DNA of 64,000 nucleotides from Ostreococcus lucimarinus (Eukaryota), in assembly GCA_000092065.1 (NCBI GenBank), contig CP000599.1, one strand, 5' to 3'. Both the position numbers and the translations under genes were made by a program. Positions 6,727 to 27,474 of this stretch are shown here, in pieces (position 1 is the stretch's first letter; each line of letters opens with the position of its first letter). Below the pieces are notes generated by a model. That model was not told where the DNA came from and did no database searches. It worked only from the letters and a program-made list of their open reading frames with translations.

Positions 6727-9700
6727 CTACCGCGCGCGTAATTCGTTAATTTTAAGCGTGAGATAGGCGGTGACGTCGTCGGAGGCCGGTGGCATGGACT
6801 CGGCGATGTAGACCAAGGTGGCGATCTCGCGCGCGGTGGCGCCGGCGCCGTCTAAGACGGCGTCGAAGACGCGCTCGGCGGCGGCCAAGGATACGGCGCC
6901 GGATTTCTTCACCGAGGCGTCCGCGATCGAGAGAGCCTTGTCGTCGTATTTCGCGCCGTCGATGACGCGGTATTGCTTTGAGGCGGATTTTGTGAGACCT
7001 GATTCGATCTCTTCGCGTCTGGCGTCGATTCGCGGTTGTAAATACGTCGCCGCGGCGTCGCTGAGGACGTAGGCGTATCGACCGCCGCCGCCGGCGAGCA
7101 CCAGCGCCAAAGTCTCGAGCTCGATCTTCGTGATTCCGGCGCCGTCGAAGACGCTTTCGTAAATTTTTTCCGCGCCGGCGCGATCGATTTCGCCTCTTTC
7201 CGCCATGAAAGTGTCCGCGAGGCACAGAGCGGCGTTGTCGTACCTGACGCCGCCGACGGTGCGATAGAATCCTTGAGGCGCTTTACGCTTTTGCGCGCGC
7301 TGTTGCTGCGTCAAAGCGTTCTTTTCCGTCAAACGTGCGTCGCGCAGTCGGGAACGGAGCTCCGCAGCGAGACCCGTGGCGTCGAGACCGCGCGCTGCGC
7401 ACTCGGCGATGAGTTCGTCGCGCTTCATTTTGCTCAACGCGGTGAGCGAGGACGGTTCGAAGACGATCGCCGGGCGTTCCTCACTCGCGGCGTCAACACC
7501 CGGCGAGGAGGTTTCAGTGCTGACGATTACGGGCGTCGGCGTCGATGGTGCCGGCACCTGCGCTCCGCTCGCGCGTTCAGCCGCGGTTTCGGCTTTCGCC
7601 GCGCGTTTGGCCAGAGCCTCCGTCTTGGCTTCGGCTTCCTTGATCGCAAGCGTCGCCGATGAAAGCTTGGCTTCGAGCTCTTCCAACTGCGTCGCGAATC
7701 GAGACTCGGCTTCCGCTAAATCGCTCGCCGCACGCTCAGCGATCGTCTGCGCCTCGACCGCAAATTCTTCTTGGGCTCGCTCGCGCGCAACATCGGCGTC
7801 GTCCTCGGCAGCGGCGAGCCGCGCCTCCATGCGTGCCAAATCTGCTCGCAATTCTCGCTCGACGTCGTCATTCAACGCGCTACTCGATGCCTCAACCTTT
7901 GCTCGCGCTTCCGTTAAGTTGCGCGTCAACTCGTCGCGCTCGGCGGCGATTGCCGCGAGCGCCGCCGCAGCCGCTTCCTGTTCGCTTCTGAGCTCGCGCG
8001 CCAGTTCGCTCGCGCGATCGTCTGCTTCGGCTAGCTTTCGCTCCAACTCATCGCTCATCGAACGCAGGCGCGTCGCCTCGGAAGCTTCAGCCCTGGTGCG
8101 CTCGATTTCATCTCTCAACTCCTCCTGCTCGAGTTCAGCGATTCGAAGTTTCTCTCGCCATGCGTTTTCTGCGCGTCGCGCGTCGTCGCGCGCGGCTTCG
8201 AGTTCAGAAGCCTCGACGAGACTCGCCGTCTTCGCTTTGAGGGCTTCAAAGCGCGCGTTGGCTTCGCTCGCACGGCGCTCGGCGTCGGTGAGTTGACCTT
8301 TTAAGCTCTCGAATGCCTCCGCCGCAGACGCGGCGGAGAGTTCGCGCGCTGATCCTTCTTCGACGAGGCGCTCTATGTCGCTCACAAGGCCGTCAGATTT
8401 GCTCGTTTCCTCGACCAATCGCGCGTCGACTCGGGACTTTTCTGCACGTAAGCGCTTGATTTCGACTTCTAGTGCGGTGAAGCGCTCCTCCACTTGCGCG
8501 ACGGCTGTTCTCGCCGCCGCTACGTTTTGTTCGCTCTGCGACATGGCGTCGTCGATGGATTTCTTGGACTCGGCGTACGCACGATCGACCTCGGACTTTT
8601 CGGCAACTAATTCATCGTACTTTGCTCGAATTTCGGCAATTCGCGCTTCAGATGAATCCACCGCCGTCGCAAGCTTTGCTTCGCTCACGCGTAAAGCCTC
8701 CGCAATGCGCTCGCGTTCTTTTTCAGACGCAACGGCGTTTTCTGCCGCCTTTGCTTCCAATTCGGCGAGAGCATTACGCACGTCATTTCGCTCTTCAACC
8801 AGGCGGTCGATCTCACCTTGTCGACGCAATGCTTCGTTTGCCGCGGCGGCGTTGATAGCGTCCTTTTCAGCGCTAGAAGCCGATTTCAAACTCGAGATTT
8901 CACTCGCATACGTGCGTGCACTCTCGGAAGCGGCTTTCTCCGCCTTGTTGAGCTCGTCGGTTTTAGCTTGCAATTGCCCGCGCAAAGTTTCGCACTCGGC
9001 TCGCGATGCATCCAGCGCCGTAGAATCTACCGCATTTGCGAGTTCACGCTCAAACGCACTCTTTTCCTCAGTCAATCTCGCGACGGTTTCTTGTAACTTT
9101 GCCATATCGCTTAACCGCGCGTTTTGCTCGCCGTCGAGTCGCGACTGTGCCGCCGCCTTTTCTTCTTGAACTCGCGCGAGCGCTTGACGCAATTCGAGCG
9201 CTTGCGATTCCGCGCGAGCTTCGGCACTCTTGAGCGTCTCCAGCGCAGATTCCTTCTCTGCGCGAAGTCGCTCAATCTCGCTCTTCATTTGCTCCTTCTC
9301 CGCTCGGCTCGACTCGTTGAGCGAACGCTCCATCTGAGCAACGGAGTCTCGCATCTCTTGCAGTTGTGCTTGCGCTTGTTTAGTTTCCGCGGAAGCGGCG
9401 TCAAGGGCTCGCGACATTTTGAGCGTCGCGTACGATTGCTCGTTCGCGCTTCTCGTTTCGAGTTTCGCCTCCACCTTGGCGAGTGCCGCGCGCGCGGTCG
9501 CGGCGTCTTCCATCGCTACTTCGGCTTCGCGCTTGGCGTCGTAGAGCTCTCGCGCAGTTTTGTCTTCATCGAGCAAAGTCGCAAATTGCTTCTCCAATCT
9601 TGCTGAATTTTCAATAGCCTTCTTCGCGTCAGCTTCGAGATTCTTGATCCGCCGCTCTTCGTTGGCGTATTGATGCTCGAGTTCGCGACGACGTTGATCC

Positions 9701-13308: not shown

Positions 13309-15375
13309 ATGTCGCGCGACGCGCTCGGAGAACGCTCGACGCGGACGTTGACGGCGTACGGACGTCCGTCGACGTCGCCGCTGGCGGAGAGCGCGAGAGA
13401 ACTGGCGAGGACGACGATGGCGGGACGACTTCGGGACGCGGCGACGACGACGCGACGAGGACGGCGAGACGACGAGGGCGAGGACGAGTACGAGAGCGCG
13501 ACGACGACGAGCGAGACGACGAGCGCGACGGCGAGTTTGATTGGGTCGTCGGTGATCGAATTCGGGCGCGAGCGGGAGGGCGCGAGGAGACTGCGGGGGA
13601 GGGATCGGTTCGGAACGGCGGCGCGGCGCGAACGATTCGAAGAGTCGAAGCGAACGGCGAAGACGCGAGGGACGTTTGACGTGGCGGAGAACGCGAGATT
13701 GGCGCTCGAGGCGAAGGAGGCGCAGTTGCAGAAGATGGCGGCGCGATTGCGAGCGTTGGAGCGCGAGCGGGAGCGGGAGCGCGGGCGTGAGATGGACGAG
13801 GAGCGGGAGACGTTTGCCGACGCGGCGAACGATTTAGAGGGGGAGATGGCGGCGGCGATGGCGAGGTTACGAGGCGACGCTGGCGGCGCGACGACGTCGC
13901 GTCAGCAGACGACGAAGTCGTCGCGCGCGCGCGAGGACGCGGGCACGTTTGCGTTCGCCCCGGATGCTTTCGCGAGTCGCGACGGCGACGACCCCGCGAC
14001 GCCCGAGCTGCCGCGCGGGCGAGGCAAAGCGGAGGAACACGGCGATGACGTCGAGATGACGAAGACGCCGGAGATAAAGCCGATGCACCCACCGCGCGCG
14101 CCACCGTCAGAGCGCTCGGACGCCGAGATTTCGGAGTCGAAGACGCCTGAACCGATCAAACCAGGCGTACGCGTGGACGGCGGATACCTCACGCCGAGCG
14201 GTCGAGTCGTCGGGAGCGCGTTGAAATCGGGTTCGTCGAAGCCGAAGACGCCGAACGAATCCAAGTCCGTCGTATTCACACCCGGAGAGATCGCGCAGTA
14301 CTCGGACGCGGGAACGCCGTTCGACGCGGCCGATGTAGAAGAGTTGCGCGCCGAGCTCCGCGAAGTCAGGGCGGCGCTCAAGAGCGCGTTCAGCGTGAGT
14401 GAAAAACTCGTCGCGCAGTGCGAAAAGAAGAATAGGGAGATCAAGGAAAAGAATACGAGCGTCATGCTCGCGCGCGAGGAGCTGGAGAACGCGCGCGCAG
14501 CGCTCGAGCGAGCGCAAAAAGAAGCGCTAGAGGCGAAGAAGTCCGTCGCCGGCGTCCCGGCGGGCGATCTCGCCGAGGCGTACGAAAAGAGCAAACGTTT
14601 GAATAGCGAACTCTTGCGCGTGATGCGCGCGTCGATCGGGGTGAATGTCGAATTAAGTCCGGACGTTGTGTTCGCAATTCTACCCACGCTCGCGAGCTTA
14701 GCCGTGCGGGGAGACGTCGCCGAGGCCATGGCGCAGGGCGGCGCCTTGGACGCCCTCGCGGGAGCGTTGGATTTGTTCGCGCACGACCCCGCGGTTTGTC
14801 GCAAAGCCATCGCCGCGATCGAATCTATTTGTCGCGCCGGATCTCCCGACGCTAGCGGGGCGACTCAAGACGAAGAGATCATCGCCATTCGCTCGAGATT
14901 GACGAACGAAGCCGTGGACGCGTGCGGCGCCGCCGTGGCGCGATGCGCGTACGATCACGTCGCCGACGCGCGATTGAGCGAAGCCATTTGCGCGCTCGCG
15001 CACGCGTTCGCCGAGATCGGCGATTATGATCGCGTTCAGTTCTTGATTGGACGTGAATGCGCGCTGGTGCAAGCGATTTGCAAGATCTCTAAGACGCACG
15101 AGCACGACGAGCGAACGCAGCGCGCGTCTTCGTTGGCGCTCGCCGCGTTCGCCGCGTGCGACGAGAACACCAAGCGCGTCGTCGAAAGTCTCGGTGGCAT
15201 CGCGCTCATCAAGCGGTGCGTGCAGGAACTCGGAATAGATGACGCGCAGCGCGCGTTTCCGCACGTCAAGCGATGGATTTCCGGGAAGAAGACGCGCGAG
15301 GACAGAGAACGCGGCGCCCGCGGTTTCGACTCGGACGACGGCGAAGCCGACGTCGACGTCACGGGAAATCTATGA
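13309..15375 (+). CDS. hypothetical protein with N-terminal coiled-coil and C-terminal armadillo/HEAT-like repeats
   Basis: ATG at 13309. The N-terminal half is E/R-rich coiled coil. The C-terminal ~250 aa shows repeated helical units (ALDALAGALDLFAHDPAVCRKAIAAIESIC..., ICALAHAFAEIGDYDRVQFLIGRECALVQAIC..., VESLGGIALIKRCVQ) typical of ARM/HEAT folds. Confidence 0.5.
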   Translation: MSRDALGERSTRTLTAYGRPSTSPLAESARELARTTMAGRLRDAATTTRRGRRDDEGEDEYESATTTSETTSATASLIGSSVIEFGREREGARRLRGRDRFGTAARRERFEESKRTAKTRGTFDVAENARLALEAKEAQLQKMAARLRALERERERERGREMDEERETFADAANDLEGEMAAAMARLRGDAGGATTSRQQTTKSSRAREDAGTFAFAPDAFASRDGDDPATPELPRGRGKAEEHGDDVEMTKTPEIKPMHPPRAPPSERSDAEISESKTPEPIKPGVRVDGGYLTPSGRVVGSALKSGSSKPKTPNESKSVVFTPGEIAQYSDAGTPFDAADVEELRAELREVRAALKSAFSVSEKLVAQCEKKNREIKEKNTSVMLAREELENARAALERAQKEALEAKKSVAGVPAGDLAEAYEKSKRLNSELLRVMRASIGVNVELSPDVVFAILPTLASLAVRGDVAEAMAQGGALDALAGALDLFAHDPAVCRKAIAAIESICRAGSPDASGATQDEEIIAIRSRLTNEAVDACGAAVARCAYDHVADARLSEAICALAHAFAEIGDYDRVQFLIGRECALVQAICKISKTHEHDERTQRASSLALAAFAACDENTKRVVESLGGIALIKRCVQELGIDDAQRAFPHVKRWISGKKTREDRERGARGFDSDDGEADVDVTGNL

Positions 15376-15459: not shown

Positions 15460-16600
15460 CTAACTCGACGCGTCGTCCGAACGTTTCTCTCGCGCGCCGA
15501 TGAACGCCGACATTTCCACCGCCGCCGTTCGAGTCGGCGACGCGTACGCGTCGTCGTCGTCGTCGTCGTCGTCGTCCATCGTCGCGCGCGTGAGCACGAC
15601 GAACCCATCGCCCGCGGCTCGAGCCCCGCCCTCGTCGTCGCCCTCGTCGTCGTCGCTCGCGAAATCGACGTCGTCCGCGAGATCTCCCAACCCCGTCTGC
15701 GCGTCCTCCGCGCCGACCCCCCGCGCTCGCGCCGAGAGCCGCGCGCACCCGAACGCCGTCGCCAACTCCACCGCCATCTCCCCTCGCGCCGGGTGCGCCA
15801 ACACGAACACGATCGCGTGCACCGCCCCCTGCGACGTCTTACACGCGACGTGCGCGCACGCGAGCCACAGCGCCGGCTTCGCTCGCCCCGCCAGCGTCGA
15901 CGCCCGCAGCGCCGTCCCCGGCACGTTCGTCACCACCTGCGCGATCGGGTACCACGCCAACCGTCGCACGTACGTCCGCAATCGCGCGTGCGCTCGCCGC
16001 GCCGTCGCGTCGTCGCGCCCCAACGTCGCCTCGAGCGCCGCCGCGCTCGCCATCCCGCGACGAATCGCGCGCCAGCAGCGCGCGTTGTAACAAAACGCCG
16101 CCCAAATCGGGACGTAATAAAAAACCAACCGGATTGTCGCCGCGCGCCTCCCCTCCGATTTCACGTGACACCGCCCCAGCCTCGAATCGCCGTACGCGTT
16201 CGCGAGCATCGGCGCGAGCGCCGACGCCGCGCACGCCGTCCACGCGAATCCGTCCTCGCGTCGCGCGTCGCCCCTCGCGCGTCCCGCGCGCAGGCTCTCC
16301 ATCAGCGCCCGCGACACGAGCGCCGCCCACACCGCGCCGGCGACGCCGAACGTCTGTATCAACGCGCCCTGCAAAGCGCAGATCGCGCCGCCGCGCGCGC
16401 CGCGATCGCCGAGCGCGCACGCCGTCGAAAACATCAAATCGCTCAGCGCCAATCGTTTCACGTACGCGTACGTCCTGCCGCGCGTACTGCGCGTCGCGAT
16501 CGCGCCCGCGAGGAGCACGAACGACGCGCCGGCGATCGACGCCGCTGAAGCGACGCGGTTCGTCGCGCGCACGATCGCGCGTTCGTCGGGCGTCCACGAC
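15460..16600 (-). CDS. seven-transmembrane receptor-like protein (GPCR-like) with acidic poly-Asp C-terminal tail
   Basis: I count seven hydrophobic helices from MSWTPDERAIV (ATG at 16600-16598) onward: SIAGASFVLLAGAIA, LALSDLMFSTACALG, ALIQTFGVAGAVWAALV, AWTACAASALAPML, LVFYYVPIWAAFCY, WYPIAQVVTNVPG and LWLACAHVACKTSQGAVHAIVFVL. The track ORF continues upstream (16601-17727) but that part is Arg-rich and overlaps the USP gene, so I exclude it. Confidence 0.5.
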
Positions 16601-16839
16601 ATTGTGGATTGAAAATTCGCGATCCGATGATTCGCGTCGCGATCGCGCGGCGTTCGGTTCGACGCGCGTCTCGATCGTCTCGGAACGTGTTCGCGATCGT
16701 TTACGACGCGTCGACGCGTCGACGCGCGGCGCGCGCGCGGCGCGATCGCGCGATTCGACGCGGGGGCGATCGATCGACGGCGGTGATTCGCGGACGCGAA
16801 CGCGAACCGTCGCGATCGGACACTCGGGTATAGGTATTG

Positions 16840-16910
16840 TGTTTCATATGATAAATATAATGTATAGAACGTGATAGTAATAAAAGGTAGTCGTATATAT
16901 AGGATGCACG
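16840..16910. promoter_or_regulatory. AT-rich bidirectional promoter island between 7TM receptor-like gene(-) and USP(+)
   Basis: gtataggtattgtgtttcatatgataaatataatgtatagaacgtgatagtaataaaaggtagtcgtatatatagg. It shares GTAT(A/G)GGTATTGTGT with the SOD/CCS island. Confidence 0.4.
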
Positions 16911-16956
16911 TCGTGCGCGACGGCCGGCCGCGACGGTTCGCGCGACACGACGACGC

Positions 16957-17767
16957 ATGGCGAACGCGACGGACGCGTCGGCGATCGTCGACGACCGCGC
17001 GACGACGGCCGACGACGACGACGACGTGACGAGCTCGATGCGCGCGCTGCGCGTCGGCGACGACGGCGAGGACGAGGACGCGCCTCGACGCGCGCGAACG
17101 ATACTGTGCCCGGTGACGGAGCGCGACGACGACGCGAACGCGGTGAAGTGGGCGCGCGATAATCTCGTCGACGCGAAGCGCGGCGATTGCGTGCACTTGC
17201 TTCACATTCTGCCGCGGCGAACGGAGGCGGTGGCGGGGTACGCGTACCCGATGATGGGGGCGCCGACGCGGCGAGGTGGGCGCGTCTCGTCTCGCGCGCG
17301 CGCTCTCGTCTCGCGCGCGCGCTCTCGTCCCGGCGGCGGCGGCGAAGGCGCGAGACGACTGACGGTTCGGTTCGCGAACGCGAGCGCGCGCAGCGTGCGA
17401 AGAGCTCGAAGACGCCGAGCGCGAGCGCAAGCGATTGGATCGCGTCAGGGCGAAACACTGGATCAACGCAAAGTTTGGACGAATGTTGCGCGAGAGCGAG
17501 ACGCCGTACCTCGTCGATTTGACGTGCGGATCGCAGGGGAACGTGGCCGTCGGCGAACTCATCACGGCCGTCGCGGAGGCGATCGACGCGGACGTGATCG
17601 TGATGGCGACGCACAATCGAGGCGCGCTCGCTCGATTCTTCGTCGGATCGGTGGCGAATTTTTGTTTGCGAAACGCCACGATGCCCGTCGTGCTGTTACG
17701 TCCGGGCGAGTACGCGCTCGATCGCAAGCGCAGTCATCACCGCGTGTTGATCGACAGACACGATTAG
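16957..17767 (+). CDS. universal stress protein (UspA-family); proposed join(16957..17275, 17394..17767)
   Basis: USP N-terminal motif ILCPVTERDDDANAVKWARDNLVDAKRGDCVHLLHILP lies in frame 1. The USP C-terminal motif PYLVDLTCGSQGNVAVGELITAVAEAIDADVIVMATHNRGALARFFVGSVANFCLRNATMPVVLL lies in another frame. A 118-nt phase-1 intron (GTGGGC donor at 17276, CAG acceptor at 17391-17393) joins them. That join gives 54 aa between the two conserved blocks, the same spacing as in a plant USP I aligned from memory. Confidence 0.6.
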
Positions 17768-17833: not shown

Positions 17834-18920
17834 TCACGTGAGATCGTCCTCCTCGGCTTCCACGGCGGCGACGATGCGCTTCTTAGCCTTTAATAGCATC
17901 GTCGTCTTCCAACCGTCGAGCCTGGACATGGAGTCGAATTCCGCCACCGCGCTCGAAAACGCGTCTTGATCGCCCGCCTCGAACGCCTTGGCGCAATTCA
18001 CCAACAAATCGCGCTCGCGCGACGACGCGAACGCCGGGTCGCTCTCCTCGTATCGCTCGCACGCGTTCAGCACCCCGACGGCGTCGTTCCAGCACAATCG
18101 ACAGATCCCCGCCTGTAAAAAGTACCCCTTCACCGAGAACCGCAGTAAATTGTTATTCAACGACGCGCGTCCGACGTCCTCAAAAATCTCCGTCGCCTCT
18201 TCGAATCGATCGAGCTTGCTCGCCAGCAGCGTCGCCGCCTTCAGTTTACAATTATTCCCCGTCGTCCGTCCCGAGTCGCCCTCGCCGTCGTACAGATCCG
18301 CCGCGCTCGAGAACGCCTCCACCGCGCGTTCATCCCCCTCCGCCGTCCCCAGGCTCTCGTACGTCTCGCCGATCTCCTTCAAATGTTTCGCCGCCTGCGC
18401 CAGTCGTCCCAATCGCGCGTACGCGTTCGACGCTTCCCTGTAGTGTCCGATCGCCTCCTCGTTCGCCCCGCACTTCTTCAGCATCTGCGCGCAGTCCACG
18501 TGCGCCGACGCCGCGTCGTGCGTCTCCTTCGTCGTCGCTCTGCACGTCGCCAGCGCCTCGTACGCGTCCGCCGCTCTTCGCCAGCTCTTCGCCAGCTTAA
18601 ACGACGTCGCCGCGCGCTCGTACAGCTCCGCCGCCTCCTCGTGCCTGTTCGCGCCCGTGATCGCGCTGAAGAATCCAACGCTCTGTCGTCGTCGTTCAGT
18701 CGGTCGCGCCGTCGTCAGTCGTCCTTCGTTCCTTCGTTCGTTCGTTCGTTCGTTCGCATTCATTCATTCATTCATTCGCGTCGATCGTTCGCGTCGAGCG
18801 CGCGCGTTCGCGCCGCTCGAGCGCGTCCGATCGCGCGCTCGCGCGCGCGCGTCGCACCCTGAGTTTCTTGGCCGCCGCGGCGCAGAGCGCGTCGCCGCGC
18901 GCGAGATCGTCGTCGCCCAT
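17834..18920 (-). CDS. alpha/gamma-soluble NSF attachment protein (SNAP); join(complement(17834..18682), complement(18858..18920))
   Basis: Exon 2 (SVGFFSAITGANRHEEAAELYERAATSFKLAKSW...DGWKTTMLLKAKKRI) is collinear with alpha-SNAP throughout. Exon 1 (MGDDDLARGDALCAAAAKKLR; ATG at 18920-18918) aligns with the alpha-SNAP N-terminus (...EAMALLAEAERKVK). The intron is 18683-18857 (175 nt) with a GTGCGA donor and CAG acceptor, and it contains a (CGTT/CATT)n microsatellite. TGTAA lies 16 nt after the stop on the minus strand. Confidence 0.75.
18700..18790. repeat. tetranucleotide microsatellite (CGTT)n/(CATT)n inside the SNAP intron
   Basis: Plus strand reads tccttcgttccttcgttcgttcgttcgttcgttcgcattcattcattcattcgcg. 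Confidence 0.8.
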
Positions 18921-18985: not shown

Positions 18986-19771
18986 ATGCGCGCCGCGACG
19001 CGCGTCGCGACGTCGCGCCCCGTCCCTCGCGCGTCGCGCTCGAGCGCGTCGCGCGTCGCGGCGACGCGAAGATTCGACGCGCGACCGAGCGACGACGTCG
19101 ATTCGGCGCAAAGATTCGACGCGCGTATGGCGCTCGTGGCGCTCGCGACGGTCGCGGCGACGCGATGCGAACTTCTAAAGCCGCCGGCGTGCGAGGCGGC
19201 GTTCATGGAGGCGGTCGAGGGGTCGGCGTCGGTGGTGACGCCGGCGGCGCCGTCGAGGCTGAAGCCGCGCGCGCGCGACGTCGTGCTGGAATCGAAATCC
19301 GAACACGCGGGCGAGGATCTGCGGCGAGAGGACCTGCGAGGGGCGATCTACGCCGAGGCGGATTTGCGACGGAGCGATCTGCGGGAGAGCGACGCGCGAG
19401 GGGCGGTGTTCAGTCGAGCGGTGATGCCGGGGGTGGACGCGCGAGACGCCGATTTTTCAGACGCGATGTTCGATTACGCGCTGCTGCGAGGGAGCGATTT
19501 CACGAATAGCGTGTTCGTGGGGGCGAATTTCGTGCGGGCGGATCTGGGGGAGGTGGTGGCGACGAACGCGGACTTCACGGAGGCGGTGATCGATCGGTAT
19601 CAGACGCTGTCGCTGTGCGAACGGGCGTCGGGGACGAATCCGTACACGGGGGCGAACACGCGGGATTCGTTGCTGTGCGACTTGGTGAAGCCGTACGCGG
19701 GCTCGGGCGAGGGAGGGAAGGTGGTGGCGACGAAGACGTCGGGGACGTGGGGTGGGGGGGGGCGCGAGTGA
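18986..19771 (+). CDS. pentapeptide-repeat protein, probable thylakoid-lumen (Tat-targeted) type
   Basis: Tandem pentapeptide repeats (EDLRREDLRGAIYAEADLRRSDLRESDARGAVFSRAVMPGVDARDADFSDAMFDYALLRGSDFTNSVFVGANFVRADLGEVVATNADFTEAVID). The N-terminus looks bipartite: an S/R-rich transit-like region, then a twin-arginine RRFDAR, then a hydrophobic core MALVALATVAA with A-x-A (CEAAF). An alternative ATG is at 19127. TGTAA lies 12 nt after the stop. Confidence 0.65.
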   Translation: MRAATRVATSRPVPRASRSSASRVAATRRFDARPSDDVDSAQRFDARMALVALATVAATRCELLKPPACEAAFMEAVEGSASVVTPAAPSRLKPRARDVVLESKSEHAGEDLRREDLRGAIYAEADLRRSDLRESDARGAVFSRAVMPGVDARDADFSDAMFDYALLRGSDFTNSVFVGANFVRADLGEVVATNADFTEAVIDRYQTLSLCERASGTNPYTGANTRDSLLCDLVKPYAGSGEGGKVVATKTSGTWGGGGRE

Positions 19772-19851
19772 GCGCGGCGCGTGTAATTACCTACGTAGCT
19801 ATCCACTAAATCGACGCTAAGCGTCCTAATAAGACTACGTCGCGTCGCCGT

Positions 19852-22800
19852 CTACAGCGTCACGTGCGCGACGCGCTGCGGGAAGCGATACACCGTTCCG
19901 TCGCCGCTCAGACAGCTCGCCAAGTACGCCCCCAAAGACGCCGAACTCGACATCATGGTGTCTAAACTCAACGCGTCGTCCATGGCGACGCCGTGCAAGT
20001 AAGGCTCCAAGTTTTCGACGGCGACGGCGGTGACGTGAGACTTCACCTCGACGTTGTACGACGCGCCGAGCGCGCTCAGCGCGTCGCAAATTTGTTCGGC
20101 GCACGTCAAGAAGACGTCGTCGGCGGGCGCGGTGTCGTGGGACCGTCGTTCACCGCGGCGTTTCTTCTCGGCGTGGTACATGGCGAAAAATTTGGCGTCG
20201 TGACTTTGTTCCGTCGCCGCGGCGATGAACCCCAAACCGCCGGGTCGAAGCGACTTGCGGAAATTTCGCAGCGCGGAGTGTAATTTCCCGCGAGGCGTCG
20301 TCGCGAATCCGTGCGCGGTGTACACGATGTCGTAGCCGATCGAAGGGTCAGCGGCACCGCCGCCGTCGCGAGTGTCGTCCTGCGTCAGCGCGTCCGCGTA
20401 ATCCTGCGGAGGCACGAACGTCGTCGTCGATCCGCGATGGAGCGTGCCGACTCTAAACGGCGGCACGAGCGACGTCGCCGCCGTGTGCAACGCCACCGCG
20501 GAGACATCCAGTAGATCGACGCTGACGTATAAGCGTTCCATCGCGGGATCGATCAACGGTGACATCATCGCCTCGCGCGTGGCGTCCGCGATATGGCGGC
20601 ACAACGCCGCAGAAAACGTGCCGACGCCGCACGCCATTTCGAGCGCCGTGAGCGCGTCGGATGGGATCGACTGACGCACCGTCGTGTTGGCGTACACTGA
20701 AGACGTCACGGATGCCACGTCGCTCGCGTCGACGTCACTTTCGCCGCGCGCCCAAGCTTTCTCAATATCGCCGTCCTCCCCGTCGTCGACGTGTTCGCGG
20801 ATGCGTTCGCGCTGAAGCGACGCGAACGTCTTCCACCAGTCGTGCGATTCAGTGATGGATTGCACGTCTGAAAACGTCGCCATGCAATACCCGGGCGTAC
20901 GACGAAGTCGCTCGTGTTTTGCGGTGTCGTGCTCTTGCTCCAACATTTCGGCGATGCGTTCGGGCGCGTTCGACCCGTCGTCCACGGACGTCGCCGTGGT
21001 GGCGGTGACGTCGCCGCCGTAGTCGCTGTAAAATTCGTCGTCGACGATGGATTGAATGTCGGATTCATCGTCGTTTTCGAACCCGTCGTCTTCGGAATCC
21101 GATAATAACGGACGTCGCTCGATTATCGTCTCTTCTTCGTCGTACGCTTTTGCACGAAGGGGTGTCGGTGTCGCGCGCGCGCCGCTCGAAACGTTCGGAG
21201 ACGTAGACGTCTTCGGAGCCGCGCGATCCACCGCACGAGATATCCGAGCGCACTCCCCAGCGCTCACGACGCCCACGTTTTCCATCCAACCGGCGCGCAA
21301 CAACGCGCGATACGTCAATGTTTTCACAAAGTCTTGCAGCGCGAACGAGCACAAGGCGAAGACAAACACAAACGCGATGCGCGCCCACGAAATCGACGCC
21401 AACGCCATGAAGGGCCAATTCGCGCTCAACAAGCAACTCATCGTCAATGACGTGGCGAACGCAGCCAAAACTAGCCCCCCTGGGCGTCGCTCGAGGAACG
21501 ACTTGTGCGCACGAGCGCTGAAAACCGTCATCGCGTCCGTGAGCGTGAGCTTGAGAAACACACAGGTTTGCACCTCGCCGTACGGTAATCGAGCGCTCAG
21601 CGCCACGCGCAGTAACGCCAGAGTCGTGAAACACGCCGTGAAGCCGCTCGCCGCGCTGACGAAGACGTGCGGAAGTAAATTCCAACGCTCTGGTAAACGG
21701 CTCGGTGAGGTGTGGTCGTACGCGGTGCCGATGACGACAACGTCATTGAGCGCGGCGTTGACGCACAACGCGATGACTGGGAGCGTAAACGTATCCGGCG
21801 CGGAGACGTCGAAAGATTTTGGACTCACCACGAGGGCGCCAAATACAAAAAATCCCAAGACGTGCGCCGTGCACGTCGCACGAAATACAATGTATTCACG
21901 CACGCGCGCGAACATCACTCGGGCAGAGAGAACCGCGTGCGCCAAGGCTGCGAGCGACGGCGCGGCTAATATGATGTCGGACGCGCATCGCGCGGCGTCG
22001 CTAGCGTTATTCATCGACACTCCCACATGTGCGAGCTGAAGCGCCGCGCTATCGCTCGCGCCATCACTCACTAAACCGACGATGTCACCCTTAGCGCGAT
22101 GGGCCTTCACCAGCGCGTGCTTGTCCTCGGGTAGCATTTCGGCGTAAGCCTTCATGCGATCGAGCTTGTCGCAGTGCGCCGGGCTCAGCACGCTCGCGCG
22201 AAGAGGCACGTACGGTACATCGCTCGGAGTGTGGATGATTCCGTCAGAATTCTCGCTCAGATCGAAACCAATCTTATCGCACGCCACGCGCGCGACCCGA
22301 GCGACATCACTAGTGACGATTTTTACGTCGACGCCGAGCGATTGCATCGCGTGCAGCATCTCGTGCGCGTCCTTGCGACGCACGTCGTCGTACATAATCA
22401 AACCCAGACCGACGTACGAATCGTCGTGGGTTTTCGAACAAGCCACCAAGAGTGCGCGAGAAATCACTCCCGCCGCCGCGCGAGATTGCAACTGCTCGAG
22501 CGCGTCGTCGACGATGGCTTGCGCGCTCTCGCGGTTGACACACTTTTCTAGCGCGACGTCGATCGGGCCCTTCATCACGCGAAACGTCGATCCGTCGTTC
22601 GCTCGACGGATGATGCTTTCACTGAATTTTCTCTTTGCCGAGACATCGAAAGGTCGATGCTCTACGAGTTCGAACTTCCCTTCCAAGTGTCGCGCGACGT
22701 CAAAGGCGTCTAAAATCATCGCGTCCACGGCGTTTGTCGGCGGCTCCTTCCATCGCGTTCCCATCGCCGCCGCCGTCATGACGTCGTTTTCGCTGACACC

Positions 22801-23943
22801 CTCGAGTAAAGGCACCGTGGGAACGATCGAGCTCAGTTTTGCGGCATCTTTAGTCAACGTTCCGGTTTTATCGACGCACAAGACGTTCATGAGAGCCAAA
22901 TCTTCGATGACGCGCGCGCGCGCGACGATGCACGATTTTTTCGCCAACGCGCGAACGCCCAAAGAGGTCGTCGTGTGCACGATCGTTCGAATCGCCAAAG
23001 GTGTGCTGATGATCAAAAGAATGACCGCAAACGATAGCGAGCGGAAGAAGTCCTTCCCCCCCACGATGAGGTACAAGAATACGCTCAGCGAGGACGCGCA
23101 TCCGACCACCGCGAACGAGCGCGTGACGATGGACACGTTCGCGTCGAACGCGGACATTTCCTTGCGAGATGAATCTCTGGCTCGCATCACGCGCGCCGCG
23201 CGCCCAGCGAATGTGTGTTTTCCGGTGCGCACCACCATCGCTCTCGCGGAGCCGCGCTTGACGACGCCTCGCGTGAACAACGGTTCGCCCTTCGCGACGT
23301 CGACGGTGTGCCTGTCGCCCGTGATCAAAGAATTATCCAAAACCAACGTCTGCGGTCCGCACGACACGCAATCCGCGGGCACCGCACACCCGGGCGTGAG
23401 CGTGACGATGTCTCCCGGCACGAGAAAACGCGCGTCGACGACGCGCGACGTCCCCGATCTCGTCACCGTCGCTCGAGCGTCCACGAGCTCCGCCAACTCC
23501 CGACTCGCCCGCACCGCGTCCTCCCTCTCGACGTGCGACACCCACGCGTTACCGAAAACCAACCCCAACAAAATCATCGCGTTGAACGTCGGATCGTCGT
23601 GCACGCGCGCGTTAAAACTCTGCGCCAATTCCAACGCCGCCCCCGTCGCCAACACCCGCGCCGTCGGATTCCTAATCTCCGCGCGCAGAAACCGCGCGAA
23701 CCGCGCGCGCGCGCGTCCCGCGTCCCCCCCCCCCGCGCTCGCCTTCCGCGCCCGCGCGCCGTCGTCCCCATCCTCGCCCGTCGCCCAATCGTTCGCGCCG
23801 TACTTTTCCAACCGCCGCGCCGCCTCGCGTTCTCGCAAGCCGCCGTCGACGTCCGCGTCCAAATCCTCCTCGTCCACCGCCGTCTCCTGCACCCCGTGGT
23901 CTCGCGCGCGCGACATCTCGTCCATCATTTTCCGCGCGTCCAT
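19852..23943 (-). CDS. divergent P-type ATPase (P3A/plasma-membrane H+-ATPase-like) fused to a C-terminal class-I SAM-dependent methyltransferase domain
   Basis: One uninterrupted ORF. N-terminal P3A-like signature GLREREAARRLEKYGANDW. Phosphorylation motif CVDKTGTLTKD. TGD is found where TGES is expected (SLITGDRHTV). The hinge motif reads SDGASDSAALQLAHVGVSM where GDGxNDxPAL is expected. Ten predicted TM helices. About 470 aa of C-terminal extension follow, containing methyltransferase motif I LEMACGVGTFSAAL, post-I YDIVYTAHGF and motif III LRPGGLGFIAA. The start is set at the ATG at 23943-23941 (MDARKMMDEM); in-frame ATGs also exist at 24120 and 24228. Confidence 0.7.
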   Translation of the reverse strand: MDARKMMDEMSRARDHGVQETAVDEEDLDADVDGGLREREAARRLEKYGANDWATGEDGDDGARARKASAGGGDAGRARARFARFLRAEIRNPTARVLATGAALELAQSFNARVHDDPTFNAMILLGLVFGNAWVSHVEREDAVRASRELAELVDARATVTRSGTSRVVDARFLVPGDIVTLTPGCAVPADCVSCGPQTLVLDNSLITGDRHTVDVAKGEPLFTRGVVKRGSARAMVVRTGKHTFAGRAARVMRARDSSRKEMSAFDANVSIVTRSFAVVGCASSLSVFLYLIVGGKDFFRSLSFAVILLIISTPLAIRTIVHTTTSLGVRALAKKSCIVARARVIEDLALMNVLCVDKTGTLTKDAAKLSSIVPTVPLLEGVSENDVMTAAAMGTRWKEPPTNAVDAMILDAFDVARHLEGKFELVEHRPFDVSAKRKFSESIIRRANDGSTFRVMKGPIDVALEKCVNRESAQAIVDDALEQLQSRAAAGVISRALLVACSKTHDDSYVGLGLIMYDDVRRKDAHEMLHAMQSLGVDVKIVTSDVARVARVACDKIGFDLSENSDGIIHTPSDVPYVPLRASVLSPAHCDKLDRMKAYAEMLPEDKHALVKAHRAKGDIVGLVSDGASDSAALQLAHVGVSMNNASDAARCASDIILAAPSLAALAHAVLSARVMFARVREYIVFRATCTAHVLGFFVFGALVVSPKSFDVSAPDTFTLPVIALCVNAALNDVVVIGTAYDHTSPSRLPERWNLLPHVFVSAASGFTACFTTLALLRVALSARLPYGEVQTCVFLKLTLTDAMTVFSARAHKSFLERRPGGLVLAAFATSLTMSCLLSANWPFMALASISWARIAFVFVFALCSFALQDFVKTLTYRALLRAGWMENVGVVSAGECARISRAVDRAAPKTSTSPNVSSGARATPTPLRAKAYDEEETIIERRPLLSDSEDDGFENDDESDIQSIVDDEFYSDYGGDVTATTATSVDDGSNAPERIAEMLEQEHDTAKHERLRRTPGYCMATFSDVQSITESHDWWKTFASLQRERIREHVDDGEDGDIEKAWARGESDVDASDVASVTSSVYANTTVRQSIPSDALTALEMACGVGTFSAALCRHIADATREAMMSPLIDPAMERLYVSVDLLDVSAVALHTAATSLVPPFRVGTLHRGSTTTFVPPQDYADALTQDDTRDGGGAADPSIGYDIVYTAHGFATTPRGKLHSALRNFRKSLRPGGLGFIAAATEQSHDAKFFAMYHAEKKRRGERRSHDTAPADDVFLTCAEQICDALSALGASYNVEVKSHVTAVAVENLEPYLHGVAMDDALSLDTMMSSSASLGAYLASCLSGDGTVYRFPQRVAHVTL

Positions 23944-24394
23944 CGCCGCCGCCGTCGTCGCGCTCGAGTCGTTCGCGCGCGCGCGTCGTCCGTCGTCGCC
24001 GTCGTCGCCCGCGGCGCCGTCGTCGCCCGCGGCGCCGAGCGCGCGCACCCATCGTTCAATCTTTTTCGTCACCGGCGCCTCGTCGCGCGCCGTCGCGCGT
24101 CCCAGATCATCGCTCAGCATGCGTTCGTAATCGTCGCCGATCGGTGACGTCGGGTCGTCGTCGCGCGCGTCGCGCGTCGTCGAATTCGTCGCCGCGTCGT
24201 CGCAATCATCGCGTTCGCGTCGTCGCATTTCGTCGTCTCGCGTCGTCGCGACGCGGTTCGAGACGCCCGCGCGCGAGTATTTTTCGCGTGCGATCGCGTT
24301 CGACGCGATTCGCGATCGCGATTCGCGATCGCGCAAAGCGCGGCGTCGCGAGCCGTCGCGCTCTGACGCGAATCGCGTCGCGTCGGGCCGTCGT

Positions 24395-24460
24395 GATGTA
24401 TCATAAACCCTATATTTACGTATTGTACACTTTTTAGTACTATGTAGATGTAGATTTTGG
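24395..24460. promoter_or_regulatory. AT-rich bidirectional promoter island between P-type ATPase(-) and uL3(+), with telo-box-like AAACCCTA
   Basis: atcataaaccctatatttacgtattgtacactttttagtactatgtagatgtagattttgggtaaaacg. AAACCCTA at 24407-24414 lies ~115 bp upstream of the uL3 ATG. Confidence 0.4.
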
Positions 24461-24527
24461 GTAAAACGAGCGCCCCGATCGCGCGCGCGCGTCCGCACAC
24501 GACGCCGAGACGCGCGCGCGCGCCGTC

Positions 24528-25610
24528 ATGCTTCGTCGCGCCTGCGCGCGCGCGGCGACGCGCGTCGCCGCGCTCGTCGCGCCGAGCCGCGCGATCGGCG
24601 CGCCGCTCGCGTCGCCGCGCGCGCGATTTCCGTCGCCGCCGCAACTCGTCGCGTCGGCGAATCATCGCCTCGCGAGCGCGCGCGCGGCGGCGCCTCGACC
24701 GTCGAGCGCGGGAATCGCGCGCGATCGACGCTCGGCGCGATCGAACGCGGTCGAGCGCGCGACGTACGCGACGTCGGCGCGCGCGGTGGACGCGGCGCAC
24801 CGAAGGGCGAACGCGACGCGCGCGGCGACGCGAGAGGCGCGCCGAAGGACCGGCGCGGTGGCGATCAAGACCGGGATGACGTGCGATTGGGACGCGCGAG
24901 GGACGAGGATCCCGCTCACGGTGCTGTGGATCGACGATTGCGAGGTGGTGGCGGCGAAGACGTCGAGCGGGGCGGACGGGTACGACGCGGTGCAGGTGGG
25001 ATACGGAAGCCGAAAGCCGAAGCAGGTGACCAAGGCGGAGCTGGGGTACTTTGTGCGAAGGAAAACGAACATTAAGAGAGCGCTGTGCGAGTTTCGGACG
25101 AGCGCGGACGGGGTGCTGGCGCCGGGGACGGCGATCACGGCGGCGCACTTCGCGGCGGGGCAGTACGTGGACGTGCAGGGCGTGACCAAGGGGAAAGGGT
25201 TTCAGGGACCGATGAAGCGGTGGGGGTTCTCGGGACAGCCCGCGAGTCACGGGAACACGAAGAAGCATCGCGCGCACGGGAGCATCGGGCAGTGCCAGGA
25301 CCCGGGGCGAGTTTTTAAGGGGAAGAAGATGGCGGGTCGGATGGGCGGCAGGACGCGCACGGTGCAGAGCGCGTACGTGTACAAGGTGGACACGGAGAAG
25401 AATTTGGTGTACGTCAAGGGACAAGTCCCGGGGAACGCCGGAATGGCGGTGAAGATCAGAGACAGCCTGCGGAAACCGCCGGCGCTGGACGGGAGCGAGG
25501 TGCCGTTTCCGACGGCGGTGGCTGGCGAGCACCCGACGGGGGTCTTCGTCGCGCCGCCGCAGGGCGCGGATCCGTTCGGTAACCCCGAACCGGTGAAGCA
25601 GCGCGCGTGA
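24528..25610 (+). CDS. RPL3: organellar (bacterial-type) 50S ribosomal protein uL3, nuclear-encoded with transit peptide
   Basis: Bacterial-type uL3 blocks are present: GMTCDWDARGTRIPLTVL, GYDAVQVGYG, FQGPMKRWGFSGQPASHGNTKKHRAHGSIGQCQDPGRVFKGKKMAGRMGGRTRTVQ and VKGQVPGNAGMAVKI. An ~110-aa R/A/S-rich N-terminal extension looks like an organellar targeting peptide. ATG at 24528. Confidence 0.85.
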   Translation: MLRRACARAATRVAALVAPSRAIGAPLASPRARFPSPPQLVASANHRLASARAAAPRPSSAGIARDRRSARSNAVERATYATSARAVDAAHRRANATRAATREARRRTGAVAIKTGMTCDWDARGTRIPLTVLWIDDCEVVAAKTSSGADGYDAVQVGYGSRKPKQVTKAELGYFVRRKTNIKRALCEFRTSADGVLAPGTAITAAHFAAGQYVDVQGVTKGKGFQGPMKRWGFSGQPASHGNTKKHRAHGSIGQCQDPGRVFKGKKMAGRMGGRTRTVQSAYVYKVDTEKNLVYVKGQVPGNAGMAVKIRDSLRKPPALDGSEVPFPTAVAGEHPTGVFVAPPQGADPFGNPEPVKQRA

Positions 25611-25890: not shown

Positions 25891-26553
25891 TCACCGCTCT
25901 CGCGGCGCCTCCAACAACAACGGCTTGAGTATGTCCCAAGTCTTCGCCAACACCGCCGTCTTATAGCACAAAAACCCACAAAACGTCGCCCCGTACGAGA
26001 AATCAAACGGCAAATCCAACCGATTCCAGCACGCCGTGAACACGACGAGCGCCGTCGGCACCAACAGTCGTCTCTGCAGCAGCGCCCTCGAGTACACGCC
26101 GCCGACTTTGCCGAACGCGCCGCTCAGCATCGCGCCCACGTCCGTCACCGGTTCGTACACCAAATTTCGCGTGTAATCCGCCTCGCTGACGTTCCCATTT
26201 TCTAAGCTCTCGCTGACGCCGTCGACGTAGTCTTGGAGCAATCTGAGGTAGCCGAGCGCGCCCGCCGAGCCGAGCGCCGCGCTCAGCCCCGGCGCGACGC
26301 CGTACCCCAGCAGGCAGTACGCCGACAGCGCCGCGCCGTGCGCGAGCGTCGTCGAGCTCAGCTCCCGCTTCAACGCGACGTACTCCTCGTCGCTCATTCG
26401 CTTCTCATCGAGCGCGTCCGCGGGCGTCGCGCGACGCGGCGTCGCGATGTTTCCGCGCCGAGGGTTTCGTCGATTCGCATTCGGCGCCCGCGCGGCGCGT
26501 CCGAGCGCGCGCGCGTCCGTGCGCGTCGATCGCGACGTCGACGACGATCGCAT
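25891..26553 (-). CDS. hypothetical membrane protein, possibly chloroplast-targeted (AtpI/CGL160-like is a low-confidence guess)
   Basis: S/T/R-rich N-terminal region, then several hydrophobic helices (LAHGAALSAYCLLGYGVAPGLSAALGSAGALGYL; VGAMLSGAFGKVGGV; LLVPTALVVFTACW; FSYGATFCGFLCY). The start is set at the in-frame M of MRSSSTSRS. The track ORF extends to 26844 but would then overlap the PIS gene on the other strand. Confidence 0.4.
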   Translation of the reverse strand: MRSSSTSRSTRTDARALGRAARAPNANRRNPRRGNIATPRRATPADALDEKRMSDEEYVALKRELSSTTLAHGAALSAYCLLGYGVAPGLSAALGSAGALGYLRLLQDYVDGVSESLENGNVSEADYTRNLVYEPVTDVGAMLSGAFGKVGGVYSRALLQRRLLVPTALVVFTACWNRLDLPFDFSYGATFCGFLCYKTAVLAKTWDILKPLLLEAPRER

Positions 26554-26695
26554 CTCCGCCGCGACCGCGCTCGGGCGCGTCCAGACGGCGTCCAGCGCGC
26601 GCGACAGTGCGGATTGCGAAATTGCACTTTTTGGGGACGCGCCGAACGCGCGCGCGTTCGCACTCCTCGACGCGCCCCGGACGCGCCGCGCGTCA

Positions 26696-27474
26696 TGCCT
26701 CCGCGCAAAAAAGCATCTTCGACCGACGCGCGCGGCTCGCGCGCGCGCGCGCCGGCGAAATCGGCGTCCAAGGGCGACGACGCGACGCGAACGCGACCGC
26801 GCGGTCGAATCGACGCGCCGCGCGCATCCTTCTTCTCGCGCCACGCCAACGTGTACGCGTACGCGCCGAATCTCGTCGGGTACGCCCGCATCGCGCTCGC
26901 GATCTGCGCCCTGAGGACCGCGTTCGCGGACGTGCGGACGTGTCTGCTGTGTTACTTCGCGTCGTTCGCGTGCGACGAGCTCGACGGCCGCCTCGCGCGG
27001 CGATACGATCAGTGCTCCGAGTTCGGTCGAGCGCTGGACATGATCACCGATAGGCTGGCGACGTCGGGATTATTGGTCGTGCTCGCGATGGAGCATCGAG
27101 AGTGGTACGCGACGTGCGTGGGATTGCTGGCGCTGGACGTGGCGTCGCACTGGACGCACGCGTACGTCCAGCTCATGATCGGCGCCGACGGTCACAAATC
27201 CATCGGCGACGAGTCCTTCTTTCTGTTGCGGTGGTACTACGGGAATCGGATATTTATGGGCGCGTGCTGCGTCAGCGTGGAGGTGCTGTATCTGTGTTTG
27301 CACGCGATGCGCGCGGATCCCGCGTTCGTCGGTTTTCGCGCGCTCGGGCCGCTGACGTTTTCGGCGCTCGCGCGTCTCGCGATTCCCGGGTTCGTCGTCA
27401 AGCAGATGGCCAACTGCGCGCAGTTGTTCGAGGCGTGCGAAACGTTGGTGAGGATCGATCGCATGGCGATTTAG
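26696..27474 (+). CDS. PIS1: CDP-diacylglycerol--inositol 3-phosphatidyltransferase (phosphatidylinositol synthase)
   Basis: CDP-alcohol phosphatidyltransferase motif DELDGRLARRYDQCSEFGRALDMITDRLAT (D-G-x2-A-R...G-x3-D-x3-D). The PIS-like N-terminus NVYAYAPNLVGYARIALAI and multiple TM helices are present. ATG at 26696; the start is uncertain. Confidence 0.75.

Follow-up and report, generated by a model that had tools for sequence, protein, structure and literature searches.

The window analysed here, a 64,000-nucleotide stretch of Ostreococcus lucimarinus contig CP000599.1, carries on its minus strand a gene in which a P3A-type P-type ATPase is joined to a class I S-adenosylmethionine (SAM)-dependent methyltransferase. 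The gene is a real, conserved fusion, present in public databases and undescribed in the papers searched. An earlier note, made from the letters of the window alone, had pointed to a single uninterrupted open reading frame (ORF) of about 4.6 kb and to an architecture without a published description. Both points held: the ORF occupied 19852..24498 on the minus strand (1548 codons, 4647 nt), and literature searches found no description of a P-type ATPase-methyltransferase architecture, although databases already held it (O. tauri CEG00832.1 included). Pedersen et al. 2012 alone was found for the pump part, and a 2023 review of open P-type ATPase questions mentioned methyltransferases only in connection with the archaeal Mtr complex.

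Strong evidence for the fusion came from the uninterrupted reading frame kept across many diverged lineages. Twenty-two clusters of 1413-1581 amino acids (aa), with 54-99% identity, covered 92-100% of the query; the named members were from O. lucimarinus and O. tauri (CEG00832.1 / XP_022840610.1, P0208, 1494 aa, annotated as 'Cation-transporting P-type ATPase'). Numerous uncultured lineages of Ostreococcus type had the same domain order, as did four or more further picoeukaryote lineages. When 1.84 billion representative proteins were searched exhaustively with HMMER using the methyltransferase profile, ATPase fusions beyond the Ostreococcus type were recovered (P0253/P0331, 1211 and 1346 aa; P0243, 1561 aa; P0240/P0333), with an additional fusion, P0640 (1165 aa), on contigs of ~1-2 Mb. 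The P0331 subfamily consisted of nine clusters with 55-97% identity, and the genes beside the non-Ostreococcus fusions were eukaryotic (ANAPC3, ankyrin, UBX, Med31, WD40). In total, the architecture was uninterrupted in >30 clusters, drawn from at least five picoeukaryote lineages, with pump identity down to ~23-37%, and the linker indels between lineages were multiples of three. The gene order rpL3/fusion/pentapeptide/SNAP was the same in L001, a Tara Oceans contig with a 58%-identical ortholog, and rpL3/fusion was found again in L013. These comparisons indicate that the fusion is real, conserved and old.

The fusion had originally been argued from the length of the ORF. It is genuine by cross-lineage conservation, but length itself was weak evidence, because the probability of finding no stop in 110 linker codons at the local composition was ~0.03 and a spurious antisense ORF of 658 aa was present. 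The linker had no AT-rich patch of the intergenic type, unlike the true intergenic region at rpL3. Both the linker and an acidic loop within the methyltransferase drifted in the window clade (ratio of non-synonymous to synonymous substitution rates, dN/dS, of 0.34 and 1.08, respectively), yet remained in frame.

The O. lucimarinus reference annotation of the fusion gene is truncated and covers about half of it. RefSeq XP_001422424.1 of O. lucimarinus CCE9901 (P0135, 723 aa, 'P-ATPase family transporter: proton, partial') was an exact substring of the predicted protein (residues 218-940; 21409-23577, minus strand), without the N-terminus, M10, the linker and the entire methyltransferase. In O. 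tauri, OtAHA1 (Q00RY3, Ot20g00330, 1043 aa) was described as 'the most divergent P3A ATPase ... a possible chimera', with no Regions I/II or 14-3-3 site (Pedersen, Axelsen, Harper & Palmgren 2012, PMC3355532). That study worked with the 1043-aa model, left the methyltransferase unrecognised and took the tail as a possible artefact, whereas the fusion ortholog CEG00832.1 has 1494 aa. CEG00832.1 is very probably the OtAHA1 gene, then represented by an older truncated model, because its 165-kb contig is compatible with chromosome 20, a small chromosome named in the locus tag Ot20g00330. A 1628-aa P3A-like protein of Chlamydomonas, Cre07.g316950, was called 'possibly a pseudogene or chimera' (PMC3355532, Table 2 footnote 9); no protein like it was recovered in the methyltransferase-profile search, and it is probably a different oddity.

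Pump half and the constraint on it

The proposed assignment to P-type ATPases, with DKTGTLT and a P3A-like N-terminus, was borne out: GLREREAARRLEKYG was present, and both PF00122 E1-E2_ATPase (E 6e-42, 143.6 bits vs a cutoff of 28.1) and TIGR01494 (153 bits vs 62.3) matched above their cutoffs, while PF00702 Hydrolase was slightly under its cutoff (24.3 vs 26.4). The best subfamily model was TIGR01647, plasma-membrane proton-efflux P3A, with 429.4 bits, under the equivalog cutoff of 615.5 bits; P3B was next with 180 bits. The top match among solved structures was Arabidopsis AHA2 (5ksd, E 1e-74), aligned over chain residues 47-825, that is M1-M10, followed by fungal PMA1 structures (7vh5, E 9e-71; second PMA1, E 9e-70). 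Ten transmembrane helices had been claimed, and this number is supported by homology, the AHA2 alignment spanning M1-M10; hydropathy alone gave 8 clear membrane segments, with M1 and M8 weak.

The predicted protein shares with the AHA2/PMA1 pumps this M1-M10 homology, DKTGTLT, the M6 Asp, the M2 Asn and a GLxxxEAxxRLxxYG N-terminal segment. It differs from them in carrying TGDR, TSD, SDGASDSAAL and a His in place of the canonical motifs and Arg655, and in its 128-residue N-terminal extension; where P3A pumps have the R-domain and 14-3-3 site at the C-terminus, it has a 364-residue enzyme domain. The M2 Asn (AHA2 Asn106) was invariant in MAFFT alignments, and the HMMER alignment placed it one residue off. 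The M5 Arg655 position was occupied by His in every Ostreococcus-type member and by Gln in P0023 and P0331; this backflow-control Arg is missing from chlorophyte P3A pumps save CrAHA3 (Pedersen et al., PMC3355532). The pump half descends from P3A H+-ATPases and would work like them, but departs from them in failing the equivalog cutoff, in three core motifs and in having no R-domain.

The atypical motifs pointed out earlier, ITGDRH and SDGASDSAAL, were verified as real deviations, and a third, TSD for TGD, had been missed. Alignment of the fusion lineages showed that the TGD-for-TGE change was limited to the window copy and P0002, 10 of the 12 aligned Ostreococcus-type sequences having TGER. 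The TGD-for-TGE and TSD-for-TGD changes are particular to the O. lucimarinus clade or strain. SDGASDSAAL is the counterpart of GDGVNDAPAL, and further changes were KGAPE to KGPID and DPPR to DDVRR. The window copy retained the Asp of DKTGT, the Thr of TSD, the Lys of EDK (HAD) and the Lys of KGxxx.

Loss of pump motifs was graded when all fusion lineages were aligned. The P0331 subfamily (9/9 clusters) combined canonical TGES, DKTGTLT, TGD, GDGAND(A/P)A(L/I) and the HAD Lys with the methyltransferase. Among Ostreococcus-type members the losses differed by lineage: DKTG(V/A) in three groups, DTTGT with EDK to EDT in P0003 and P0005, and ETTGT with the first Asp of GDGxND gone in P0018. Four more members of the P0018 cluster, from different contigs, also carried ETTGT, and a sequencing error was rejected on that ground. 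Nearly all catalytic motifs were gone in P0243, P0333 and P0640, the counterpart of DKTGT being DSEIL in P0243 and STSCC in P0333; P0243 was also without the M6 Asp. The methyltransferase in all fusion lineages kept the motif I CGxG, the beta2 Asp, the PGG motif and the C-terminal hairpin. The simplest reading of the alignment is that the pump was probably functional when the fusion arose, and that several lineages could afterwards do without the ATPase chemistry.

Selection was estimated by pairwise Nei-Gojobori dN/dS, with bootstrap 95% intervals and a Fisher test between clades, from two sequence pairs and not a full phylogenetic codon model: window vs P0002 (92% identical, both DKTGT) and P0018 vs P0003 (ETTGT vs DTTGT). 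For the pump core, dN/dS was 0.107 (0.06-0.17) in the first pair and 0.309 (0.25-0.39) in the second (p = 2.4e-5). For M5-M10 the values were 0.04 and 0.40 (p = 2e-5), and for the methyltransferase core 0.26 and 0.16 (p = 0.32). Where the phosphorylation site is lost, constraint on the pump is therefore three- to ten-fold weaker, though still short of neutrality. In the window clade the pump was the most strongly constrained part of the protein, more than its own methyltransferase, and the constraint was tightest in the ion-pathway helices. Because of this low dN/dS and the retained DKTGT Asp, TSD Thr, EDK Lys, SDGASD Asps and M6 Asp, the window copy probably still cycles, and the M5-M10 value of 0.04 lends indirect support to ATP-driven H+ transport. 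In the SERCA-type mechanism, the Glu of TGES activates the water that hydrolyses the phosphorylated E2 state (E2P). By analogy, an Asp at this position is expected to slow dephosphorylation rather than block phosphorylation.

Methyltransferase half and its bacterial relatives

The METHYLTRANSFERASE half begins past M10 with an acidic linker, which is followed by the 364-residue domain. A methyltransferase of ~470 residues had been proposed; the class I fold stood, but the domain measures ~364 residues and lies behind a linker of ~109. Motif I (LEMACGVGTFSAAL, 20608-20646) and motif III (LRPGGLGFIAA) were both present as claimed. In alignments of 58 algal and bacterial sequences, 14 residues were invariant, including CGxG, the beta2 Asp (LLD), D27, W37, H249 and E314; within motif I, domain positions C106, G107, G109 and F111 were invariant. 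An acidic low-complexity loop at the junction of cap and core evolves neutrally (dN/dS 1.08).

In the search with hidden Markov models for a methyltransferase fold, all of the family members tested (8/8) matched Methyltransf_25/12/23 of Pfam (best E 8.8e-9), P0253 scoring above the Pfam cutoffs, and structure prediction gave a confident class I model. The AlphaFold2 (AF2) model, built from the 58-sequence alignment with the bacterial relatives, had a predicted local distance difference test (pLDDT) score of 84.4 and a predicted template modelling (pTM) score of 0.83, with strands at 99-104, 141-147, 164-171, 205-211, 233-244, 298-309 and 352-363; pLDDT fell below 50 at model residues 80-89, in the acidic loop. 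An earlier model from a shallow alignment (8 Ostreococcus sequences, pLDDT 43) was discarded. Foldseek against the PDB returned 624 matches at E <= 0.001, and the 50 listed were all methyltransferases, mostly small-molecule enzymes. The top match was human histamine N-methyltransferase (E 2.4e-11, ~285 columns), followed by OxaG, RoqN, GtmA, JHAMT and phosphoethanolamine methyltransferase, all small-molecule enzymes with a substrate cap. Identity to such cap-bearing enzymes (histamine N-methyltransferase 1jqd, TmtA 5egp, JHAMT 7ec0, OxaG 5w7k) was 11-16%, and their substrates are not transferable to the algal domain. The shallow methyltransferase profile gave nothing significant against PDB sequences, and the deep profile gave only a partial match to NTMT1 (84 residues, E 5.8e-7). 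N-terminal protein methylation, suggested by this match, was not adopted, both fold searches favouring small-molecule enzymes. The model thus makes the class of small-molecule class I methyltransferase well supported, and the substrate not. Conserved motifs and dN/dS of 0.16-0.26 suggest that the domain binds SAM and transfers methyl groups.

The closest non-fusion relatives were bacterial and standalone, 270-303 aa long, with no annotation beyond 'class I SAM-dependent methyltransferase'; they came from Gammaproteobacteria, Alphaproteobacteria, Actinobacteria, Binatia, Planctomycetota and Myxococcota. They aligned along the whole domain, including the cap and C-terminal hairpin, with 25-36% identity and profile E of 1e-76 to 1e-100; a Congregibacter protein matched the window at 19828-20808 by tblastn (E 2e-18). 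NCBIfam provided no specific name for them, only weak PRK06202 and UbiE matches. The bacterial family (Congregibacter P0420, Williamsia P0467, Binatia P0388) shares the whole-domain homology and the 14 invariant residues with the algal domain, and differs from it in being soluble, in having no acidic insertions and in its operon setting. A bacterial origin of the algal domain by gene transfer is plausible.

The same operon was found in three phyla, represented by Congregibacter, Williamsia and Binatia (L002:4854-9015; L004:5066-7790; L005:4951-10500). In it, the homolog of the algal domain was abutted or overlapped by the gene of a PhyH-family Fe/2-oxoglutarate (2OG) dioxygenase, and a second class I methyltransferase was transcribed divergently. 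An MFS transporter and a Methyltransf_33 protein were nearby in two of the three (Congregibacter, Binatia), and the Methyltransf_33 proteins were EgtD (L-histidine N-alpha-methyltransferase) by equivalog (347 and 398 bits vs a cutoff of 291). In P0274 (620 aa), an EgtD-like Methyltransf_33 domain (E 1.8e-63) was followed at the C-terminus by a domain of the algal methyltransferase family, a fusion that gives independent support for a functional link between EgtD and the algal-type methyltransferase. No characterisation of the EgtD-PhyH operon was found in the papers searched, and its product may be a histidine-betaine-derived metabolite not known so far. Because of the EgtD/PhyH association and the fold class, a small nitrogenous metabolite, perhaps a histidine derivative, is the most plausible class of substrate. 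Glycine/sarcosine methyltransferases, considered for the paired bacterial methyltransferases, were set aside, none being among the PDB sequence-profile or structural matches listed.

Proposed mechanism, alternatives and known systems

We consider it likely that the gene encodes a bifunctional membrane protein in which a P3A-type ATPase, its pump still cycling, is combined with a small-molecule methyltransferase. The product would be one membrane protein of ~1458 residues, with a methyltransferase tail in place of the autoinhibitory tail of plant and fungal pumps. The family probably started from a functional proton pump to which a membrane-tethered methyltransferase was coupled. The O. lucimarinus pump probably forms the aspartyl-phosphate and cycles slowly, since an Asp in place of the TGES Glu is expected to hinder the hydrolysis of E2P. 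The methyltransferase would act at the membrane on a small cytosolic metabolite, for which an N-heterocycle or an amine, such as a derivative of histidine, is plausible; the E1/E2 conformations of the pump would gate the activity or access of the enzyme, which may in turn feed back on the pump as a stand-in for the R-domain. In the sister lineages, ATPase chemistry would be dispensable and the pump body kept as a membrane anchor or scaffold.

More tentatively, and with considerable doubt, the E1/E2 cycle may be mechanically coupled to the tethered methyltransferase, with the domain acquired by a Mamiellales-like picoalgal ancestor from a bacterial EgtD-linked pathway. Through such coupling, proton pumping could be tied to the synthesis, or the vectorial release, of a methylated metabolite derived from histidine or an amine. 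If true, this would be a class of bifunctional membrane enzyme unrecognised before, of which living lineages show every stage from active transporter to non-catalytic scaffold.

Several points weigh against the bifunctional enzyme with a cycling pump. Four core P-type motifs were non-canonical in the window copy (TGDR, TSD, SDGASD, KGPID), and given these motifs a residual ATPase activity can only be presumed. The dN/dS contrast is limited by resting on two sequence pairs, and the coupling of the two halves is pure inference. The methyltransferase domain of the window matched Pfam Methyltransf_12 with only 21.6 bits (E 3.7e-4), under the gathering score of 30, because acidic insertions split the match. 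Its structural neighbours were a mix of N-, S- and O-methyltransferases with similar scores, none outstanding, and tblastn found no homolog of PhyH, EgtD, the second methyltransferase or the MFS transporter in the 64-kb window. The full-length product of the O. lucimarinus gene is predicted from its sequence, and in O. tauri another annotation divides the ortholog between OUS44909.1 (1107-aa pump) and OUS44908.1 (215-aa methyltransferase) (P0206/P0209). Both proteins departed abruptly from CEG00832.1, in the acidic loop and near the C-terminus, and the split looks like frameshifts, from assembly errors or strain differences. Finally, an MMETSP ORF from an orthologous lineage (P0180, Transcript_6389, 367 aa, 'type:complete') was equivalent to ~19855-20946 and started, shortly ahead of the methyltransferase cap, at the Met of an IAEML motif. 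In that lineage the methyltransferase part is thus transcribed; the ORF could hint at an internal start or shorter transcript, or may be a mere fragment.

The motif changes could also mean that the ATPase of the window copy transports nothing and serves as an anchor or as a ligand-, pH- or voltage-sensing module controlling the methyltransferase, comparable to some P4-ATPase-guanylate cyclases, a reading we judge unlikely. A sensor rather than a pump had been suggested in the earlier note, and the idea fits the sister lineages with ETTGT/DTTGT or no motifs. The substitutions in the window copy (TGES to TGDR, TGD to TSD, GDGxND to SDGASD, KGAPE to KGPID, DPPR to DDVRR) speak for it, as do the ETTGT/DTTGT orthologs with EDK to EDT, clearly non-catalytic yet retained, and P0243, P0333 and P0640, in which the methyltransferase is combined with a wrecked pump. 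For the O. lucimarinus copy it probably does not apply (dN/dS 0.11, retained residues): DKTGT Asp, TSD Thr, EDK Lys, both Asp of SDGASD and the M6 Asp were kept, and constraint was three-fold (pump core) and ten-fold (M5-M10) stronger than in the clade with the dead site, exceeding that on its own methyltransferase.

Quite improbable, in our view, is a non-enzymatic domain that binds SAM or S-adenosylhomocysteine (SAH) and, in place of the R-domain, tunes the pump to methylation or sulfur status. The domain sits exactly at the R-domain position of P3A pumps, cytosolic and after M10 (Pedersen et al. 2012), and the canonical-pump P0331 subfamily carries it beside a fully intact pump. Against such a regulator, all 14 residues invariant in the bacterial enzymes (14/14) were kept, including ones beyond those for SAM binding (D27, W37, H249, E314), and the domain was held at dN/dS 0.16 in lineages whose dead pump has nothing to regulate. 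That the fusion is an annotation or assembly artefact, in which a pump gene and a methyltransferase gene, adjacent on the same strand, are in frame by chance and expressed separately is very improbable: GC-rich DNA does give long stop-free stretches (P ~0.03 for 110 codons; the 658-aa antisense ORF), and the split O. tauri annotation, the MMETSP ORF labelled 'complete' and the RefSeq partial pump would all agree with it, but the frame was uninterrupted in >30 clusters at pump identities down to ~23-37% with linker lengths differing by multiples of three, and the linker, which had no AT-rich patch, contained a conserved DEFYSDYG motif.

Few membrane enzymes have been studied as closely as the P-type ATPases, whose C-terminal tails are known to be short peptides with a regulatory role. 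With a conserved enzyme domain at the tail position, the algal family is a second kind of enzyme-fused P-type ATPase beside the alveolate P4-ATPase-guanylate cyclases. The lineages form a natural graded series, from canonical pump through atypical constrained pump and dead phosphorylation site to fully degenerate body, on which one can test how a primary pump turns into a scaffold or sensor and which of its parts selection continues to hold. The fusion also accounts for OtAHA1, the 'possible chimera', and reveals the O. lucimarinus reference annotation to be truncated. It ties abundant ocean picoalgae to a widespread uncharacterised bacterial methyltransferase family of EgtD/PhyH operons, a tie that points to a methylated metabolite not known so far, which may matter ecologically. 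Because O. tauri is genetically tractable, the predictions should be open to direct tests.

The closest conceptual analogue is the group of alveolate P4-ATPase-guanylate cyclases (TgGC, PfGC-alpha/beta; PMC6592433, PMC7858053, PMC13466520), in which a P-type ATPase is likewise covalently bound to an enzyme domain. In PfGC-alpha, the phosphorylation-site Asp of the appended ATPase domain is reportedly required for cGMP synthesis (PMC7858053). The alveolate chimeras differ in combining a P4 flippase with a cyclase, the ATPase being N-terminal to a multi-transmembrane cyclase, whereas the algal protein combines a P3A pump with a soluble C-terminal methyltransferase. Arabidopsis At5g53010 (PMC3355532 footnote 12) is likewise a retained P-type homolog with several core-motif substitutions; it is a lone P2B relative without the DKTGT exon, whereas the algal family is a graded series of orthologs tied to an enzyme domain.

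Gene layout and neighbouring genes

The likely start of the protein is the ATG at 24228 (MRRRERDD...), the first ATG of the ORF, giving 1458 aa. It was chosen because the metagenomic protein P0001 (99% identical) has the same 1458-aa length and start; the in-frame extension up to 24498 is probably non-coding. The span given previously, 19852-23943, lies in the ORF, but a start there would be the internal Met96 of the likely protein. Within the fast-evolving N-terminal extension, SP(I/D)GD(D/A)YERML at residues 28-38 (~24115-24147, minus strand) was kept in all Ostreococcus-type members. Features of the gene are given in Table 1.

Table 1. Positions in the window of the fusion gene, its domains and motifs, and the adjoining intergenic region.
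Feature	Position	Strand	Description
Complete fusion coding sequence	19852..24228	minus	1458 aa; stop 19852-19854; predicted order N-terminal extension, P3A-type ATPase, linker, methyltransferase
N-terminal extension	23845..24228	minus	residues 1-128; poorly conserved (alignment); dN/dS 0.46
P3A-type P-type ATPase module	21274..23844	minus	residues 129-985, GLREREAARRLEKYG to M10; AHA2/PMA1 matches, TIGR01647, dN/dS 0.11
A-domain motif TGDR	23311..23322	minus	canonical TGES, Glu to Asp; as ITGDRH; Asp in window copy and P0002 only
Phosphorylation motif DKTGT	22858..22872	minus	intact; within CVDKTGTLT, residues 451-459
P-domain motif TSD	22306..22314	minus	canonical TGD; strain-specific, P0002 has TGD
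Hinge/Mg2+ motif SDGASD	22051..22068	minus	canonical GDGxND; both Asp kept; Gly to Ser, Asn to Ser
M6 LND	21742..21750	minus	Asp corresponds to AHA2 Asp684, proton acceptor/donor; invariant in Ostreococcus-type members, lost only in P0243
Cytosolic linker	20947..21273	minus	residues 986-1094, ~109 residues; variable, acidic, in frame; (D/E)FYSDYG motif; dN/dS 0.34
Class I SAM-dependent methyltransferase	19855..20946	minus	residues 1095-1458 (364); N-terminal helical cap and seven-stranded Rossmann core
Acidic low-complexity loop, cap-core junction	20659..20778	minus	residues 1151-1190; dN/dS 1.08; missing from bacterial relatives
SAM-binding motif I ALEMACGVGTFSA	20608..20646	minus	A-C-G-x-G is the norm of the whole family, including bacteria
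Divergent intergenic/promoter region between fusion gene and rpL3-like gene	24229..24527		AT-rich patch ~24400-24470

The fusion gene was flanked by an alpha-SNAP homolog (17834-18763, minus strand) and a pentapeptide-repeat protein (18986-19771, plus strand) on one side, and by an organellar-type rpL3 (24528-25610, plus strand, Pfam match) and a CGL160_C protein (25891-26844, minus strand) on the other. These four genes had no obvious tie to methylation or transport. Two stop-free ORFs, at 22154-24130 (plus strand, 658 aa) and 24114-25532 (minus strand, 472 aa), were antisense to or overlapped real genes and gave low-complexity translations rich in Arg, Ala and Ser. Both are artefacts of base composition in a GC-rich genome and call for caution in using ORF length as evidence. 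Elsewhere in the window, Pfam gave no match for a 688-aa ORF at 13309-15375 (plus strand) or a 755-aa ORF at 15460-17727 (minus strand), and a SAP domain (E 3.4e-7) was the sole recognisable feature of an 1849-aa ORF at 6727-12276 (minus strand).

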